From positions 1-6,970 of the IMG/VR virus record IMGVR_UViG_2547132415_000017: a stretch of DNA of 6,970 nucleotides. The stretch is one strand, 5' to 3'. Below the pieces are notes generated by a model that was given only the letters and a program-made list of their open reading frames with translations, was not told the DNA's origin and made no database searches. A program made the position numbers and the translations under genes. The stretch comes from a virus. Lineage: Duplodnaviria; Heunggongvirae; Uroviricota; Caudoviricetes. Position 1 is the first letter of the stretch, and each line of letters opens with the position of its first letter. This document shows positions 1-6,970 of the stretch, piece after piece.

Positions 1-1
1 G

Positions 2-2503
2 GTGGCGCGTAACGCGTCCGCGGTGGCACAGAACACGGCAGCCGCGAAGAAGTCAGCCGGCGATGCCAGCACATCAGCCCGTGAGGCGGCAACCCATGCG
101 ACTGATGCTGCAGGCTCAGCACGCGCAGCCAGCACGTCAGCCGGACAGGCCGCGTCGTCGGCTCAGTCAGCGTCTTCCAGCGCAGGAACGGCATCAGCAA
201 AGGCCACTGAAGCATCAAAAAGTGCTGCCGCTGCAGAGTCCTCAAAAAGCGCGGCGGCCACCAGTGCCGGTGCCGCGAAAACGTCTGAAACGAATGCTGC
301 AGCGTCACAACAATCAGCAGCCACTTCTGCATCCACCGCGACCACGAAAGCGTCAGAAGCTGCCACCTCAGCCCGGGATGCGTCGGCTTCAAAAGAGGCG
401 GCAAAATCATCAGAAACGAACGCATCATCAAGCGCCAGCAGCGCAGCTTCCTCGGCAACGGCGGCAGCAAATTCTGCGAAGGCGGCAAAAACGTCCGAGA
501 CGAACGTTAAGTCTTCTGAAACGGCAGCGGGACAGAGTGCCTCAGCTGCGGCAGGCTCAAAAACAGCGGCTGCATCATCTGCCAGTGCCGCGTCAACAAG
601 TGCCGGGCAGGCCTCAGCCAGTGCCACTGCCGCCGGAAAATCGGCAGAAAGCGCTGCATTGTCCGCTTCAACAGCCACAACGAAGGCTGGCGAAGCCGCT
701 GAACAGGCCAGCGCAGCAGCGAGGTCAGCTTCCGCAGCGAAGACATCCGAAACGAACGCGAAAGCGTCGGAAACCAGCGCAGAATCCTCAAAAACGGCTG
801 CCGCATCGTCAGCCAGTTCGGCGTCGTCATCGGCCTCATCGGCGTCTGCTTCAAAAGATGAGGCGACCAGACAAGCGTCAGCAGCGAAGGGCAGCGCCAC
901 GACGGCATCCACGAAGGCAACAGAGGCTGCTGGCAGTGCGACGGCGGCATCTCAGAGCAAAGTTGCTGCTGAATCCGCGGCAACGCGTGCCGAAACAGCG
1001 GCAAAACGGGCAGAGGATATTGCTGATGCCGTATCTCTGGAAGATGCGAGTACGACGAAAAAAGGTGTGGTTCAGCTCAGTAGCGCCACTAACAGCCCGT
1101 CTGAAACGCTGGCTGCGACACCAAAAGCGGTTAAGGCGGTAATGGATGAAACGAACAAGAAAGCGCCCTTAAATAGTCCTGCACTGACCGGAACGCCAAC
1201 AACGCCAACTGCGCCAAAAGGTACTAATAATACTCAGATCGCAAGTACGGCTTATGTGATGGCCGCGATTGCCGCCCTTGTAGACTCGTCGCCTGACGCA
1301 CTGAATACGCTGAACGAGTTAGCGGCGGCGCTGGGCAACGACCCGAATTTTGCGACCACCATGACTAACGCGCTTGCGGGTAAGCAACCGAAAGATGCCA
1401 CCCTGACGGCGCTGGCCGGGCTTGCTACTGCGGCAGACAGGTTTCCGTATTTTACGGGGAATGATGTCGCCAGCCTGGCAACCCTGACAAAAGTCGGGCG
1501 GGATATTCTTGCGAAATCGACCGTTGCTGCCGTTATCGAATACCTCGGTTTACAGGAAACGGTAAATCAGGCTTCTGGCGCATTACAGAAAAACCAGAAC
1601 GGCGCAGATATTCCGGGAAAAGATACCTTCACCAAAAACATTGGTGCCTGCCGCGCATATAGCGCATGGCTGAATATTGGTGGCGATAGTCAGGTCTGGA
1701 CAACTGCGCAATTTATTTCGTGGCTGGAGAGTCAGGGGGCATTTAACCATCCTTACTGGATGTGCAAAGGCTCATGGGCTTATGCAAATAATAAGGTTAT
1801 TACAGATACAGGTTGCGGAAATATTTGTCTTGCAGGTGCTGTGGTGGAAGTTATTGGCACTCGCGGCGCAATGACCATACGCGTTACTACGCCGAGCACG
1901 TCCAGCGGTGGCGGAATTACTAACGCTCAATTCACTTATATTAATCATGGTGATGCTTACGCTCCTGGCTGGCGACGAGACTACAACACGAAAAACCAGC
2001 AGCCTGCATTTGCTTTAGGGCAAACAGGACGCAGGGTCGCAAATGATAAAGCTGTTGGCTGGAACTGGAATAGCGGTGTTTATGATGCAGATATCAGTGG
2101 TGCATCGACATTAATCCTCCACTTCAATATGAATGCGGGGAGTTGCCCTGCTGTACAGTTCCGCGTGAATTACAGGAACGGCGGTATTTTTTATCGTTCA
2201 GCGCGTGATGGTTATGGCTTTGAAGCTAACTGGTCAGAGTTTTACACCACAACACGCAAACCCTCTGCGGGGGATGTTGGTGCATATACGCAGGCAGAAT
2301 GTAACTCAAGGTTTATTACAGGTATTCGCCTTGGCGGTCTGTCATCTGTTCAGACATGGAAAGGCCCCGGCTGGTCTGACAGGTCAGGTTATGTCGTTAC
2401 GGGTTCAGTTAACGGAAACCGTGATGAATTAATTGATACAACTCAGGCAAGGCCAATTCAGTATTGCATTAATGGGACGTGGTATAACGCGGGGAGTATT
2501 TAA
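2..2503 (+). CDS. Phage side tail-fibre protein (Stf-like), 5'-partial; constant part 2..~1545, variable receptor-binding C-terminal cassette ~1546..2503
   Basis: ORF open from the window edge (833 codons). The N-terminal ~330 aa are Ala/Ser/Thr-rich with a recurring AAK(T/S)SETNA motif. A fibre-type segment follows (KKGVVQLSSATNSPSETLAATPKAVKAV...). The C-terminus ...RPIQYCINGTWYNAGSI parallels the C-terminus of the opposite-strand cassette (...FRPIQKYINGTWYNVVQV). The ORF crosses the left crossover site in frame (VIEYLGLQETVN). Stop TAA at 2501-2503. Confidence 0.9.
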   Translation: MARNASAVAQNTAAAKKSAGDASTSAREAATHATDAAGSARAASTSAGQAASSAQSASSSAGTASAKATEASKSAAAAESSKSAAATSAGAAKTSETNAAASQQSAATSASTATTKASEAATSARDASASKEAAKSSETNASSSASSAASSATAAANSAKAAKTSETNVKSSETAAGQSASAAAGSKTAAASSASAASTSAGQASASATAAGKSAESAALSASTATTKAGEAAEQASAAARSASAAKTSETNAKASETSAESSKTAAASSASSASSSASSASASKDEATRQASAAKGSATTASTKATEAAGSATAASQSKVAAESAATRAETAAKRAEDIADAVSLEDASTTKKGVVQLSSATNSPSETLAATPKAVKAVMDETNKKAPLNSPALTGTPTTPTAPKGTNNTQIASTAYVMAAIAALVDSSPDALNTLNELAAALGNDPNFATTMTNALAGKQPKDATLTALAGLATAADRFPYFTGNDVASLATLTKVGRDILAKSTVAAVIEYLGLQETVNQASGALQKNQNGADIPGKDTFTKNIGACRAYSAWLNIGGDSQVWTTAQFISWLESQGAFNHPYWMCKGSWAYANNKVITDTGCGNICLAGAVVEVIGTRGAMTIRVTTPSTSSGGGITNAQFTYINHGDAYAPGWRRDYNTKNQQPAFALGQTGRRVANDKAVGWNWNSGVYDADISGASTLILHFNMNAGSCPAVQFRVNYRNGGIFYRSARDGYGFEANWSEFYTTTRKPSAGDVGAYTQAECNSRFITGIRLGGLSSVQTWKGPGWSDRSGYVVTGSVNGNRDELIDTTQARPIQYCINGTWYNAGSI
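1533..1566. repeat. Left inversion crossover site (gix/pix/hix-like), embedded in frame in the tail-fibre ORF
   Basis: ttatcgaatacctcggtttacaggaaacggtaaa; its reverse complement matches 4578-4611 at 32 of 34 positions. The 26-bp core TTATCGAATACCTCGGTTTACAGGAA resembles serine-invertase crossover sites as I recall them. Central dinucleotide TC here versus GA at the right site. Confidence 0.85.
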
Positions 2504-2505
2504 CG

Positions 2506-3039
2506 ATGATGCACTTAAAAAACATTACTGCTGGCAACCCTAAAACAAAAGAGCAATACCAGCTAACAAAGCAATTTAACATCAAATGGCTTTATTCAGA
2601 TGATGGAAAAAACTGGTATGAGGAACAAAAGAATTTCCAGCTAGACACTTTGAAAATGGTCTATGACCATAACGGCGTTATTATTTGTATTGAAAAGGAT
2701 GTTTCAGCAATTAATCCAGAGGGTGCAAGCGTCGTTGAATTACCTGATATTACAGCAAATCGCCGGGCTGATATTTCGGGGAAATGGATGTTCAAAGATG
2801 GCGTAGTGATAAAGCGAACTTATACCGAGGAAGAGCAGAGGCAACAAGCGGAAAATGAAAAGCAAAGCCTGTTGCAACTTGTCAGGGATAAAACCCAGCT
2901 ATGGGACTCACAGCTACGGCTGGGCATCATTTCCGACGAGAATAAACAAAAATTAACCGAGTGGATGCTCTATGCGCAGAAAGTCGAATCTACAGACACT
3001 TCCGGCCTGCCAGTAACGTTTCCCGAACAACCAGAATGA
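2506..3039 (+). CDS. Tail-fibre assembly protein (Tfa family), cognate to the expressed fibre cassette
   Basis: 177-aa ORF with ATG 2 nt after the fibre stop (TAACGATG) and GGGGAG 9-14 nt upstream. The N-terminal ~110 aa are closely similar to the opposite-strand paralogue ([22 protein letters not shown]...DGKNWYEE...PDITANR...SGKWMF), with divergent C-termini. Stop TGA at 3037-3039. Confidence 0.88.
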   Translation: MMHLKNITAGNPKTKEQYQLTKQFNIKWLYSDDGKNWYEEQKNFQLDTLKMVYDHNGVIICIEKDVSAINPEGASVVELPDITANRRADISGKWMFKDGVVIKRTYTEEEQRQQAENEKQSLLQLVRDKTQLWDSQLRLGIISDENKQKLTEWMLYAQKVESTDTSGLPVTFPEQPE

Positions 3040-3043
3040 GAGA

Positions 3044-3061
3044 AGGCCCGCTATCGGGCCT
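3044..3061. terminator. Bidirectional hairpin between the convergent tail-fibre assembly genes
   Basis: AGGCCCG-ctat-CGGGCCT (7-bp GC-rich stem, 4-nt loop), followed by TTAATTTTT on the plus strand and flanked by T-rich sequence on the minus strand. Sits in the 28-bp gap between the stops of the two Tfa genes. Confidence 0.6.
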
Positions 3062-3067
3062 TAATTT

Positions 3068-3595
3068 TTACTCTGGTTTTTGTGGCCATTCAGGATTTGC
3101 CGTATCCACACGGCTGACCAGAACACTGTAGCGTTCCCATGCTTCCAGTCGTGTGCGTTCCTCGTCTGTTGCCATATTCAGCCTGACAGCGCGTTCCAGC
3201 GGTTGGATGACTGATTCAGCTTCGGAAAGCAATGCGGCCTTTTGTGATTCGGCCTGTTGTTGTTGCTCGTCTGCCGTATAAATCCGTTTAACCACAGCTC
3301 CGTCCCTAAACATCCACTTACCGGAATCATCAGCGCAGCGGTTGGCTGTAATATCTGGAACCTCAACGACGCTATAACCTTCAGGGTTAAGCGTGGAGGC
3401 ATCTTTGGTGATGGCGACAATAATATTATTTGCATCGTAAACAATCTTTATTGTGTCTGGCTGAAAGTTTTTCACTTCCTCATACCAGTTTTTTCCGTCT
3501 TCGGACCATAACCAGATAACATCAAAATTCTTTGTTAGCTGATATTGTTCTTTTGTTTTTGGATTTCCAGACTTAATATTTTTTAAATGCTGCAT
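3068..3595 (-). CDS. Tail-fibre assembly protein (Tfa family), alternative copy for the silent cassette
   Basis: 175-aa ORF on the minus strand, paralogous to 2506..3039. Its ATG lies 3 nt after the stop of the upstream minus-strand fibre cassette, mirroring the plus-strand arrangement. Confidence 0.88.
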
Positions 3596-3598
3596 AAA

Positions 3599-4603
3599 TT
3601 ACACCTGTACGACGTTATACCATGTGCCATTGATGTATTTTTGTATTGGTCTGAATACTGCCGGATCATCGCCATCAACTGCACCGATAATGCCAAGCCC
3701 CGTAATTGCATGACCTGATTTCTCATACATCACGCCTTTTTGCATAGTCTGAACAACACGTGTACCAAGTCGGACATCTCTCACATAACGTGAGTCAAAA
3801 TTACCATAATTGCCGGGAATAACTTGCGCACCGCAAAGCCAGTTGCCATTGTTGTCCATGTACGCCTGACCATCGGTGCCATTGGCTGTCCTTGAGTTAT
3901 TAATCATGTAGATGCCAAATTGCTTATTCCCCAGTCCACCAATCATAAATTTGCGATCAGCGTGGTCCTGACGAAGTAATGCCTGCGCACCATCGGTGGA
4001 TACCGCATTGCGTCCCAAAATAACATTCTGGTCACGCATATGAATCCACATGCCGGTACTACTGTTAATTGCAAAACGGTTTGCAAATATATCCCCTGTA
4101 ACATCAAGACCATGCCCCATGCTTATCCGACCAGTTCTGAGATTAAGCGTAAAGGGGCGTAGTGGCCCTATATCACCATTTTCTCCCTCATTCTCTCGTG
4201 TAGGGATGATATGCAGGCATTCTTCAGAACGACGAAAAATAGCACCAAAAGATGAATTAAATATCCTCAGTGCATTGACTGTCGATATTTTTACTTCACT
4301 GCTGAAAAGGGCTTTAACAAGGACAGACAAAGCATCCCATTTAAGAGTCATCAGGTCTTTTGTTGTGGTGCTCTGGCGGCTTCTCCATTTGAAATATTCA
4401 TTGCCGTTGTCGCCTGTTTCAAACCACATGTATGAATCAGTGTCGCTGTCGGCATTATTTTTAAAACCAATCTTTGCCCAGTCAGTATTTCTAATCCAGG
4501 CAAGGATTGAGTCGTTTTCAAAAGTAAGCCCACCGGACAAGGTATCGCCATTCTTTTGCACGGCGTTCCTGGCCCTGTTTACCGTTTCCTGTAAACCGAG
4601 GTT
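3599..4603 (-). CDS. Silent alternative tail-fibre C-terminal cassette (Sv'-like); no own start or promoter, expressed only after inversion fuses it to the constant fibre region
   Basis: Minus-strand frame is open for about 334 codons from directly after an in-frame TAA (4604-4606) through the right crossover site (N-LGLQETVN-RARNAVQKNGDTLSGG...) to a stop at 3599-3601. The early sequence parallels the plus cassette (QETVNQASGALQKNQNG...). The C-terminus ...FRPIQKYINGTWYNVVQV parallels ...RPIQYCINGTWYNAGSI. The M at 4561 in the ORF track is a GTG and is probably not a real start. Confidence 0.8.
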   Translation of the reverse strand, partial: NLGLQETVNRARNAVQKNGDTLSGGLTFENDSILAWIRNTDWAKIGFKNNADSDTDSYMWFETGDNGNEYFKWRSRQSTTTKDLMTLKWDALSVLVKALFSSEVKISTVNALRIFNSSFGAIFRRSEECLHIIPTRENEGENGDIGPLRPFTLNLRTGRISMGHGLDVTGDIFANRFAINSSTGMWIHMRDQNVILGRNAVSTDGAQALLRQDHADRKFMIGGLGNKQFGIYMINNSRTANGTDGQAYMDNNGNWLCGAQVIPGNYGNFDSRYVRDVRLGTRVVQTMQKGVMYEKSGHAITGLGIIGAVDGDDPAVFRPIQKYINGTWYNVVQV

Positions 4604-4611
4604 TTAGATAA
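4578..4611. repeat. Right inversion crossover site (gix/pix/hix-like)
   Basis: tttaccgtttcctgtaaaccgaggttttagataa; core TTCCTGTAAACCGAGGTTTTAGATAA. Inverted copy of 1533-1566 with 2 mismatches. Lies about 55 bp upstream of the invertase start. Confidence 0.85.
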
Positions 4612-4665
4612 TGGCGGTTTCTGGCCTGCATGGCATGATTTGTGCTTTTGGACGGGAGATTCAGC

Positions 4666-4860
4666 GTGCTGATTGGCTATGTAAGGGTATCAACAAATGA
4701 CCAGAATACAGACCTGCAACGAAACGCTCTTGTTTGTGCAGGATGTGAACAAATATTTGAAGATAAATTAAGCGGAATAAGGACAGGCCGACCTGGATTA
4801 AAACGTGCTTTAAAGCGCCTTCAAAAAGGTGACGCACTGGTTGTCTGGAAACTGGACTGA
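4666..4860 (+). pseudogene. pin: Serine DNA invertase (Pin/Gin/Cin/Hin family), truncated: 64 intact N-terminal codons then TGA; a degenerate 3' remainder continues to about 4995
   Basis: GTG at 4666 preceded by GGGAGA (4654-4659). Product VLIGYVRVSTNDQNTDLQRNALVCAGCEQIFEDKLSGIRTGRPGLKRALKRLQKGDALVVWKLD matches the conserved invertase N-terminus, including the catalytic-serine motif YVRVSTNDQ. Stop TGA at 4858-4860 sits where intact invertases have Arg (WKLD-RLGRS...). The next in-frame codons ([12 protein letters not shown]) still weakly resemble LGRSMKHLISLV, after which no frame resembles an invertase. A full-length gene of about 190 codons would not fit before the convergent gene ending at 5066. 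Confidence 0.8.
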
Positions 4861-5003
4861 CTGGGTCACTGTATGCGGCATCTTGTCGTGCTGGTGGTGG
4901 AAGCCTGGAAGAAGTATCGGGTGTTGCTGAACCGTGTTAATACAACAACTGCACCGGATATTGAATGGCCAACAGGACCCATTATCGAATAGTGCATTAC
5001 GAA

Positions 5004-5036
5004 CTGCAGGATATTATATGGGATAATATTCTGCAG
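5004..5036. terminator. AT-rich palindromic hairpin between the invertase remnant and the 3' end of the GGDEF gene (possible bidirectional terminator)
   Basis: ctgcagGatattat-atggg-ataatattctgcag: 14-bp stem with one mismatch and a 5-nt loop, followed by TTTATTGGGGCTGTATTTT on the plus strand. Confidence 0.4.
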
Positions 5037-5065
5037 TTTATTGGGGCTGTATTTTAAAAAGGTGT

Positions 5066-6397
5066 TTATTTTGAGTGAGTTATCACCTTGTTTTTTCCGG
5101 TTCTTTTGGCTTGATATAACGCTTTATCGGCATTGACTAACATTTCAGATGGACTGAGATTATTCTCTTTTGAAGTAAAGCAACCAATACTGACAGTTAT
5201 TTTCTCAGGTCCATGCGATAATAATTTTTCCGAGCATTGCTCTTCAATGTTTTTTCTGATTCGCTCTGCAATTGATAGCAAGAGCTTTTGAGTATTACCT
5301 TTAATGATAATACCGAACTCCTCACCGCCTAAGCGCCCTAATATATCCTCTTTCCTGATGGATTTTTTTATTATTCTGGTAACCATTACTATGACTTGAT
5401 CACCCATATGATGCCCCCATTTGTCATTGATGCTTTTGAAATTGTCAATATCTAACATTATTACTGAGAAATCATGGTGTTTTGATATATTCTTCAATGA
5501 GTCAATAAAGTATCTTCTATTGTATGTATTCGTTAGTGGATCATGAATTGCCATATGATTAGCATGATTTAATTTCCTGAAAACATAATACATGAGTGTT
5601 GAAATGATATAAATCATTGATATCAATTCAAGAAATTTTGTCATGTACCATGCAGGATGGGATTTATCAATAAAATACAATAAAATTAGATTATTGCATA
5701 CTGACACTATACTAATAAGTATTATACACAACCATATTTTTGAGTAATTACGTATGCTGATGCATGAGCTGATAAGTAATACAAGCCAAAATACTGATAT
5801 TATTTTGGTGTACACGATATTCCACGTCGGCAAATGACGATTCAGCGAGTATTGTATAATATTAAGACTATATTTTATATTGTCACTGCTTAGATTTTTT
5901 GCTACAAACGGAGTAATAAAAAGAATTAATATTGACAAAACAACAATTATTATGTTTCTTTTATCTTCTAAAACACTTTTGTTTTTAACATTGGTGGAAT
6001 AAACAGCCAGAAAGATTATAGATATAAAGCTGAACTGACGGAATAGATAATATATTGCGATATCATTTGATTTCTGATAGATTGTAGATAAATCGTTACC
6101 TAACGGAGATAAAGAAATAATAGCCACTTCTAATAAATAATACGTGTTGCTCAAAAACGCGAATGAAAGAATTAAGAGATAACTTTGTCTCTGATTAGAA
6201 ACATAGTAAAGCAATAGAAAAATAAAAATCATCAGGTTTATGAAAAAAAGCCCAATAATGAAAACACTATAACTTATTTGTGTTGTTTGTGTTATGTATA
6301 TTCCATTATTTGCATGCAGTAACAAAAATATAATAGAGATGCATGAAAATAAAAAGATGAAGATTTTTATTTTTATAGGTACCTGGTTGATAATCAT
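5066..6397 (-). CDS. Membrane-anchored GGDEF-domain diguanylate cyclase: about 8 predicted TM helices (MASE-type sensor region, possibly YcdT/DgcT-like) plus a C-terminal GGDEF domain
   Basis: 443-aa ORF. The N-terminal ~275 aa are strongly hydrophobic, with about 8 stretches of 19-25 residues. The C-terminal domain has canonical GGDEF-domain motifs: DPLTNTYNRRYF, IMLDIDNFKSINDKWGHHMGDQVI, and RLGGEEFGII (GGEEF encoded at 5315-5329). An RxxD motif (RKED) sits 5 residues upstream of GGEEF. Also ADKALYQAKRTGKNKV. ATG at 6397-6395 with AGGTG 7-11 nt upstream. Very AT-rich. Family assignment of the N-terminal domain is from architecture only and is unverified. Confidence 0.88.
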   Translation of the reverse strand: MIINQVPIKIKIFIFLFSCISIIFLLLHANNGIYITQTTQISYSVFIIGLFFINLMIFIFLLLYYVSNQRQSYLLILSFAFLSNTYYLLEVAIISLSPLGNDLSTIYQKSNDIAIYYLFRQFSFISIIFLAVYSTNVKNKSVLEDKRNIIIVVLSILILFITPFVAKNLSSDNIKYSLNIIQYSLNRHLPTWNIVYTKIISVFWLVLLISSCISIRNYSKIWLCIILISIVSVCNNLILLYFIDKSHPAWYMTKFLELISMIYIISTLMYYVFRKLNHANHMAIHDPLTNTYNRRYFIDSLKNISKHHDFSVIMLDIDNFKSINDKWGHHMGDQVIVMVTRIIKKSIRKEDILGRLGGEEFGIIIKGNTQKLLLSIAERIRKNIEEQCSEKLLSHGPEKITVSIGCFTSKENNLSPSEMLVNADKALYQAKRTGKNKVITHSK

Positions 6398-6655
6398 GTA
6401 CGCACCTGAGAATGATATATATATAATATGTATCGCTACAAATAACGATAATTTCTTACTGGTGATAGTATACTATTATTCTGGTTAATCGCTGTCAAAT
6501 TGATGATTTTGGTTAGTATTGCAATAGCGAAGAGTTTGATCCGGTAAGACTGGCTAGGCAAGGCTATACCAAAAAATCAGTGTAGGTTCAGAAAATGATG
6601 CACCATACAATCATCAATAATTTCAAATTGTCCATTGTGCATAAATCATAAAGAA

Positions 6656-6692
6656 AACCGCAGCACGTCGTATGCAAGAACGTGCTGCGGTT
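6656..6692 (-). terminator. Rho-independent-type terminator hairpin oriented for minus-strand transcription
   Basis: Perfect 12-bp stem aaccgcagcacg / cgtgctgcggtt (6656-6667 and 6681-6692) with a 13-nt loop. On the minus strand it is followed by TTTCTTTATGATTTAT; on the plus strand the following sequence is not T-rich. Confidence 0.5.
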
Positions 6693-6878
6693 GGCTGGTG
6701 AACTTTCGATAGTGCGAGTATTGAATGATTTCCAGCTGTTGCCGATTTTACTATGTTTTCAGTAGAACACTTAGACAAAACTGAGGCACACAAATCTTTG
6801 CACTGGATTGCAAGGCTTTGTGCTTCTCTGGAGTGCGACATGTTTGATAACAAAAAATTAGCGCAAGAAGACAAAAAT

Positions 6879-6970
6879 TAGACTGGCCCCCTGAATCTCC
6901 AGACAACCAATATCACTTAAATAAGTGATAGTCTTAATACTAGTTTTTAGACTAGTCATTGGAGAGCAGA
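6879..6970 (+). mobile_element. IS2 insertion sequence, left terminal inverted repeat and leader (partial; continues beyond the window)
   Basis: TAGACTGGCCCCCTGAATCTCCAGACAACCAATATCACTTAAATAAGTGATAGTCTTAATACTAGTTTTTAGACTAGTCATTGGAGA... matches the IS2 left end as I recall it, the region just upstream of the transposase orfA start. Recognised from memory, not by search. Confidence 0.8.

Follow-up and report, generated by a model that had tools for sequence, protein, structure and literature searches.

The window analysed here is a stretch of 6,970 nucleotides assigned to a virus of the Caudoviricetes (IMG/VR record IMGVR_UViG_2547132415_000017, positions 1 to 6,970). On its minus strand it carries an open reading frame that a preliminary description, made from the letters alone, had read as a membrane-bound GGDEF cyclase lying between a prophage end and an IS element, and as a candidate for phage- or island-associated control of c-di-GMP. 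This locus raises the questions of which gene this is, whether its product would act as a diguanylate cyclase, and whether it belongs to the phage or to the DNA beside it.

Identity and distribution of the gene

The reading frame under study is the following:

5066..6397, minus strand: dgcX coding sequence, encoding a MASE4-GGDEF diguanylate cyclase of 443 aa plus stop, with an ATG start

This gene, whose ATG is preceded at 5 nt by an AGGTG Shine-Dalgarno sequence, is dgcX, an accessory diguanylate cyclase gene of E. coli whose first description came from the O104:H4 strain of the 2011 outbreak (PMC4287979). It is thus a known gene, already described and tested, and we identify it as such because of its near-identity to the O104:H4 DgcX, the matches of published primers, and the fit of the residue numbering at E359 and E360. 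The RefSeq entry for the coding sequence of the window is WP_001468417.1, a "sensor domain-containing diguanylate cyclase" recorded from hundreds of E. coli genomes, and the DNA of the window is 100% identical to the gene of this entry in many of them. The copy in the O104:H4 genome NZ_CP064387 is 99.6% identical to the window at the DNA level. The O104:H4 protein (WP_000586343.1) shares 439 of the 443 residues, including an identical GGDEF domain, and all four substitutions (window to O104:H4: A29E, P190S, I194T and K245Q) fall within MASE4. Each of the four published dgcX primers (Table S3, PMC4287979) matches the window with its 3' part, at positions 6774-6792 (dgcX-d-412), 6385-6406 (dgcX-u-18), 6424-6448 and 5069-5087; the first of these matches contains one mismatch, which adjoins an engineered EcoRI site. 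Additionally, the mutants published by Cimdins-Ahne et al. (2023), E359A, E360A and E359A/E360A (PMC10459773), land exactly on both Glu residues of the GGEEF motif of the window. The association with a phage suggested by the preliminary description was upheld, while its reading of the gene as a new candidate was not, since the published dgcX is the same gene. Naming it dgcX classifies the window correctly and keeps a known gene from being reported as a discovery.

Of 5426 complete E. coli genomes, 771 contain dgcX, 665 of them at an identity of 99% or more and 86 with an allele of 90-95%. In a large protein collection, the exact DgcX protein occurred on at least 1000 contigs, and its cluster at 90% identity comprised 6087 members. 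When contigs of 185,579 species representatives were searched, three loci matched dgcX: one in E. coli, one on a 2.5-kb contig in a Bacillota MAG (99% identical), and a weak alphaproteobacterial match. The contig binned as Bacillota is almost certainly mis-binned E. coli DNA, and these 185,579 representatives gave no clue to a low-GC donor of dgcX.

The membrane and catalytic domains of DgcX

Two domains and two motifs were recognized in the product:

5576..6280, minus strand: MASE4 integral-membrane sensor domain, residues 40-274 (PF17158)
5087..5551, minus strand: GGDEF catalytic domain, residues 283-437 (PF00990, TIGR00254)
5315..5329, minus strand: A-site GGEEF, residues 357-361 (motif; E359 and E360 mutated in a published study)
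5345..5356, minus strand: I-site RxxD, R348-K-E-D351 (motif and alignment to the RxxD of PleD)

The N-terminal region of about 275 aa had been credited with about eight hydrophobic helices, and the hydropathy profile agrees with this count, showing eight peaks within residues 10-272 (approximately 10-28, 47-63, 73-89, 113-129, 149-165, 199-215, 223-240 and 256-272). Richter et al. (2014) similarly described an N-terminus of ~270 aa with eight predicted transmembrane helices and named YcdT and YeaI as paralogues (PMC4287979). The statement that this region has no obvious signature did not hold, given that the MASE4 profile PF17158 matched with 124.2 bits (cut-off 28.4; E 7.4e-36) over profile positions 4-237, that is, 234 of 239. 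Eight transmembrane segments would place both the N- and the C-terminus in the cytoplasm, and the positive-inside rule was in modest agreement with this topology (10 Lys/Arg in the predicted inner loops vs 7 in the outer ones). The periplasmic loops would comprise residues 29-46, 90-112, 166-198 and 241-255. An AlphaFold2 single-sequence model was set aside, as its quality (mean pLDDT 48.9, pTM 0.26) was too poor for a helix count or a fold search.

The assignment of the C-terminal part as a GGDEF cyclase domain was borne out by the profile search, in which PF00990 scored 152.7 bits (cut-off 23.8) over all of its 161 positions (1-161) and TIGR00254 scored 163.9 bits (cut-off 37.4). The GGEEF and RKED motifs were found at the canonical spacing that the preliminary description had claimed, with the five residues ILGRL between D351 and G357. 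An intact A-site with an RxxD motif five residues ahead was also reported for DgcX by Richter et al. (2014) (PMC4287979).

The GGDEF domain of DgcX aligned to the structures 1w25 and 2wb4 of PleD (E 6e-25), the Caulobacter enzyme (1w25, 2v0n, 2wb4) that shares with it the GGDEF fold and the aligned catalytic and I-site residues, and on which the mechanism of GTP condensation and of product inhibition through RxxD is modelled. In the numbering of the PleD literature, D316, N324, D333 and K431 of DgcX correspond to D327, N335, D344 and K442, which act in catalysis and in metal and GTP binding. In the same numbering, R348 and D351 correspond to R359 and D362, and the GGEEF motif at 357-361 to PleD 368-372. 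The sole mismatch among the catalytic residues is K435 at the position of PleD R446, a conservative Arg-to-Lys change. This Lys is also found in the O104:H4 DgcX, a protein that is active in vivo. The RKED I-site would be expected to bind c-di-GMP and thereby limit output. The two proteins differ at their input, given that PleD is a soluble response regulator in which phosphorylation drives dimerization, whereas DgcX has a membrane MASE4 input, in addition to the Lys in place of R446.

The likeness to MASE-type cyclases such as YcdT (DgcT) that had been proposed earlier was confirmed by the MASE4 match and by an identity of 37% to DgcT of E. coli K-12 across 408 residues (E 4e-83). DgcT has a similar length (452 aa) and is likewise a MASE4-GGDEF protein with GGEEF and RxxD motifs, but it is encoded by a core-genome gene adjoining pgaABCD that is weakly expressed and repressed by CsrA, and its gene has a GC content of 38.6% vs 29.8% for dgcX. 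The closest K-12 relative is CdgI (YeaI), with 38% identity across 426 residues (E 3e-90), which shares MASE4 and an intact I-site with DgcX; nevertheless, CdgI has a degenerate EGEVF motif where DgcX has GGEEF, and it binds c-di-GMP without being a cyclase.

This closeness to CdgI brings up the idea that DgcX has no catalytic activity and serves as a c-di-GMP receptor or scaffold that acts through its I-site and protein contacts only. CdgI, besides binding c-di-GMP, contacts other GGDEF domains, the Lys at the PleD R446 equivalent could be taken in the same sense, and the rdar morphotype of strain Fec101 changed little when the chromosomal dgcX was deleted (PMC10459773). Against this, overexpression of DgcX in strain Fec10 strengthened the rdar morphotype at 28 °C and caused csgD-independent cellulose production at 37 °C, and this overexpression effect was lost in the GGEAF and GGAAF mutants, with a slight remainder in GGAEF (PMC10459773). 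We consequently regard a silent receptor as highly improbable. The Congo-red and GGAAF-mutant test that the preliminary description had proposed has in this way already been published, with a motif-dependent induction of cellulose as its outcome (PMC10459773). The published evidence for the activity of DgcX was obtained in vivo, by overexpression, with a protein that differs from the allele of the window at four MASE4 residues; an in vitro cyclase assay or a measurement of I-site inhibition was not found in the two DgcX papers (PMC4287979, PMC10459773). For DgcX itself, we infer that it would act as a cyclase in vitro, that its product would inhibit it, that it has the membrane topology given above, and that MASE4 may control it.

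Place of dgcX in the lambdoid prophage

On both sides of dgcX, the window contains DNA that can be placed on the lambda map, followed on the right by an insertion sequence:

4895..4970, plus strand: 3'-end remnant of tfa (lambda-type tail-fibre-assembly gene), left flank; 93.4% identical to lambda 22460-22535 (end of orf-194/tfa)
6658..6759, no strand assigned: right flank, homologous to non-coding DNA of the lambda b region; the match is lambda 24162-24265 (89.4% identity), which separates ea47 from ea31
6785..6878, no strand assigned: DNA adjoining the attP P arm on its left (the sib/tI region in lambda coordinates), in which IS2 ends the homology
6879..6970, plus strand: IS2, left end (IRL), with its reading direction away from dgcX; identity to the start of IS2 in the related genome L002, 98.9%

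Phages HK106, phi80 and HK633 likewise contain matches to the segment at 6658-6759, in their attP-proximal DNA. In the related genome L003, in which IS2 does not cut the comparison short, the homology runs on at 89% to lambda 27471-27742, including the att core, which lies 641 bp past the dgcX start. The window itself stops inside IS2, short of the att core and ybhB; it shows the tail-fibre side, and the closest genomes put the same arrangement at ybhB-bioA. The usual site of dgcX, attB-lambda, lies between ybhC and ybhB. The gene order in these closest relatives is gpJ, lom, stf, tfa, an inverted segment with tfa' and stf', a truncated recombinase, the tfa remnant (annotated there as an incomplete tfa), dgcX on the opposite strand, 745 bp, ybhB and bioA.

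In four related genomes (L001, L002, L003 and L011), the att core GCTTTTTTATACTAA stands between dgcX and ybhB. Because of this position of the core, dgcX lies inside the prophage, within its b region, and not beside it. Of the flanks given in the preliminary description, the IS element was correct (IS2 at 6879-6970), but the prophage end was not. By the alignment to lambda, dgcX stands where ea47 stands there and, like it, reads leftward, with ea31 to ea59 (lambda 24266-27470) missing here. In lambda, ea47, ea31 and ea59 occupy the same slot between the 3' end of tfa and attP and are also leftward and convergent with stf-tfa, although they are unrelated to dgcX in sequence and function. What is new here is a modest refinement: dgcX fills the ea47 slot of the lambda b region, with conserved lambda DNA on both sides.

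The O104:H4 and EAEC 55989 DgcX has the same MASE4-GGDEF architecture, A- and I-sites and upstream region as that of the window and, going by the closest genomes, probably the same attB-lambda prophage context. The two arrangements differ in that the O104:H4 tfa is full length and abuts dgcX, whereas in the window the functional tfa is separated from dgcX by an invertible tail-fibre segment of the Pin type, together with a truncated invertase, which explains why only the tfa remnant abuts dgcX here. A second difference is the IS2 located 481 bp upstream of the dgcX of the window. This insertion, in phage DNA proximal to the attP arm, falls at about lambda 27564, 19 bp to the left of the annotated Int arm site (27583). 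Among the 5426 complete E. coli genomes, not one contained the dgcX-IS2 junction at a coverage of at least 80%, and we therefore consider it strain-specific; a larger rearrangement mediated by IS2 may have occurred in the source strain.

The edges of the segment that carries dgcX could be narrowed by comparison with other prophages. Homology with a prophage at the Rac site that lacks dgcX ends at position 4974 of the window, and a divergent copy in an island between argW and dsdC is 89.8% identical over approximately 4898-6759, including the tfa remnant. These two observations together delimit a module of ~1.9 kb whose edges are conserved lambdoid sequences.

Richter et al. (2014) reported that dgcX always adjoins lambdoid prophage DNA, mostly at attB-lambda, and suggested that it hitchhiked by specialized transduction, as host or island DNA taken up beside attB through aberrant excision instead of as an integral gene of the b region (PMC4287979). 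Its base composition would suit such an origin, as the GC content of dgcX (29.8% overall and 27% in the MASE4 part) is foreign to E. coli and to the neighbouring phage genes on the left (tail-fibre genes, ~50%). The same can be said of its absence, by megablast and tblastn, from all 50,697 deposited phage genomes, where the matches were limited to the lambda-like flank and to remote GGDEF domains of less than 40% identity; dgcX was also absent from the PLSDB plasmids by megablast. In contrast, the att core between dgcX and ybhB places dgcX on the phage side of attR, DNA homologous to lambda is found on both of its sides, and ea47 is replaced in the same orientation. According to the standard map of lambda bio-transducing phages, a capture from the bio side should have left dgcX on the bacterial side of the core. 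Furthermore, the module, together with the tfa remnant, is also present at argW, where a different integrase (IntS) operates. In view of these data, specialized transduction seems quite unlikely as the origin, and an integral b-region cassette appears well supported by the flanking homologies.

Expression, spread and role of dgcX

The following elements were located around the coding sequence:

6398..6801, minus strand: dgcX upstream region, the published dgcX::lacZ fragment (-412 to +18), placed by primer matches
6656-6692, minus strand: terminator-like hairpin followed by a U-tract (-25.3 kcal/mol, z -3.9)
5001..5039, no strand assigned: hairpin with a 17-bp stem, located where the tfa remnant and dgcX converge; a candidate terminator for both directions

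The dgcX::lacZ fusion with this fragment showed very high expression in growing and stationary cells, to which RpoD and RpoS contribute (PMC4287979), and among the diguanylate cyclase genes of E. coli, dgcX has the highest expression reported. Within the fragment, the best sigma70-like site has a -35 element TTGACA at 6498-6493 and a -10 element TAGTAT at 6475-6470, matching 10 of 12 positions. The consensus promoter scan was rejected as independent evidence, since it returned 12 sites vs 11.2 +/- 2.9 in shuffled sequences. Folded as the plus strand, the hairpin at 5001-5039 reaches -24.8 kcal/mol (z -5.5) and is followed by a U-tract; folded as the minus strand, it reaches -15.8 kcal/mol (z -5.2) and has no such tract behind it. 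We also considered whether IS2 drives or disrupts dgcX and rejected this idea as unlikely; its left end faces dgcX, its transposase gene reads in the opposite direction, and the element lies 481 bp off, beyond the 412-bp fragment that confers high expression. From its orientation and its insertion outside this fragment, an effect of IS2 on the expression of dgcX is unlikely.

Taken together, our preferred reading, to which we assign a probability of roughly 0.93, is that dgcX is a horizontally spread accessory diguanylate cyclase gene that lambda-like prophages carry as cargo in their non-essential b region. The eight-helix MASE4 domain would anchor DgcX in the inner membrane and would pass an input signal on to GGDEF; in the cytoplasm, a dimer of GGDEF domains would condense two GTP into c-di-GMP at the GGEEF half-sites, and product bound at RKED would cap the output. 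The c-di-GMP so formed would promote biofilm matrix, in the form of cellulose in Fec10 and, as has been proposed for O104:H4, of curli through CsgD. As for its dissemination, recombination between lambdoid phages at the conserved flanks would move the dgcX cassette; because conserved lambda sequences lie on both flanks, this could account for its presence among lambdoid prophages and at different integration sites, and it would explain the spread of dgcX better than specialized transduction.

A related question is whether the phage itself benefits. It could be proposed that the selected role of dgcX is lysogenic conversion, for example with c-di-GMP-driven matrix or reduced motility protecting lysogens against superinfection and with MASE4 sensing envelope stress. 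The location in the b region, the usual site of lambdoid morons, near lom and the tail-fibre genes, is consistent with this, as are the strong activity of its own promoter both during growth and in stationary phase (PMC4287979) and the fact that several PHROG families, as well as unrelated phages, include GGDEF proteins. Nevertheless, this proposal is compatible with the reading of dgcX as b-region cargo rather than an alternative to it, and many copies of dgcX reside in islands or in prophages that have decayed (H9Ecoli and the argW island are examples), from which it follows that the gene is kept without a functional phage. Strains with an intact dgcX prophage include O104:H4 and fS58a. As an account of what dgcX was selected for, we find it unlikely. 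The fuller version, a true lambdoid lysogenic-conversion gene in the form of an autonomous b-region cassette that recombines at its flanks and whose MASE4-gated c-di-GMP is selected for the benefit of the phage, is similarly doubtful as a whole, although its structural half, the integral b-region cassette, is well supported; if it were true, DgcX would alter the surface or lifestyle of the lysogen, for example by shielding it with matrix from superinfection or by favouring persistence in the gut. For the bacterium, DgcX has been proposed as a contributor to the curli phenotype and strong adherence shown by the O104:H4 strain of the 2011 outbreak.

The invertible tail-fibre segment

The left part of the window is occupied by tail-fibre genes, which include an invertible segment and comprise the following features.

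2-2503: stf (side tail-fibre gene), 5' end cut by the window start
1529-4615: Pin/Gin/Cin-type invertible tail-fibre segment, ~3 kb
1529-1566 / 4578-4615: inverted repeats (38-43 bp) bounding the segment
2506-3039 (+): tfa, within the segment
3068-3595 (-): tfa', inverted, within the segment
3599-4561 (-): alternative stf C-terminus, within the segment
4642-4860: serine-recombinase ORF (72 aa) beside the segment

In relatives, stf measures 2838 bp, and the window opens within the gene. Its N-terminal part consists of Ala/Ser/Thr-rich low-complexity repeats (~350 aa, 58-63% GC), and a Pfam search gave no match for the fragment held in the window (2-2503). The adjacent recombinase ORF, at just 72 aa, reaches only halfway through the Resolvase N-terminal domain; because of this, the tail-fibre switch is probably frozen, barring the action in trans of another Pin.

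dgcX in other locations

A second allele of the diguanylate cyclase gene dgcX was found at positions 6001-7332 of locus L012 (NZ_AP021944), with 94.2% DNA identity, 28 amino acid differences and an I-site that reads RKDD. This allele, found in ~86 genomes, resides in an argW-dsdC island beside intS and with the same tfa remnant; its other neighbours are non-lambda genes, encoding an AraC regulator, an alcohol dehydrogenase and an alpha/beta hydrolase. The search of complete E. coli assemblies placed dgcX on plasmids in 3 of 776 places, and no copy was detected in the plasmid collection PLSDB. At 99% identity, dgcX was also present in L008 (JAEWTL010000008.1, 2.5 kb), a contig binned in a 'Bacillota bacterium' MAG; this fragment almost certainly comes from E. 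coli and was mis-binned.

IS2 and a hairpin at the prophage end

Two further features lie on the other side of dgcX.

6656-6692 (-): strong hairpin, 14 bp, then UUUUCUUUAU
6879-6970: IS2 left end, in lambda sib/tI-proximal DNA

The IS2 insertion site is ~160 bp left of the expected position of the att core, and a search of 5426 complete E. coli genomes did not turn up its junction. This element could have split the prophage from its own attR, or it could mark a rearrangement. In L002 (strain YJ6), which carries a prophage of this type, a separate, independent IS2 at 9786-11118 interrupts the truncated recombinase gene; IS2 has therefore targeted this end of the prophage repeatedly.

The hairpin is located within the homologue of lambda 24162-24265, further upstream than the promoter region of dgcX, and resembles an intrinsic terminator that acts leftward. 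Such a structure would shield dgcX from int-side (pL/pI) transcription once the phage has been excised.
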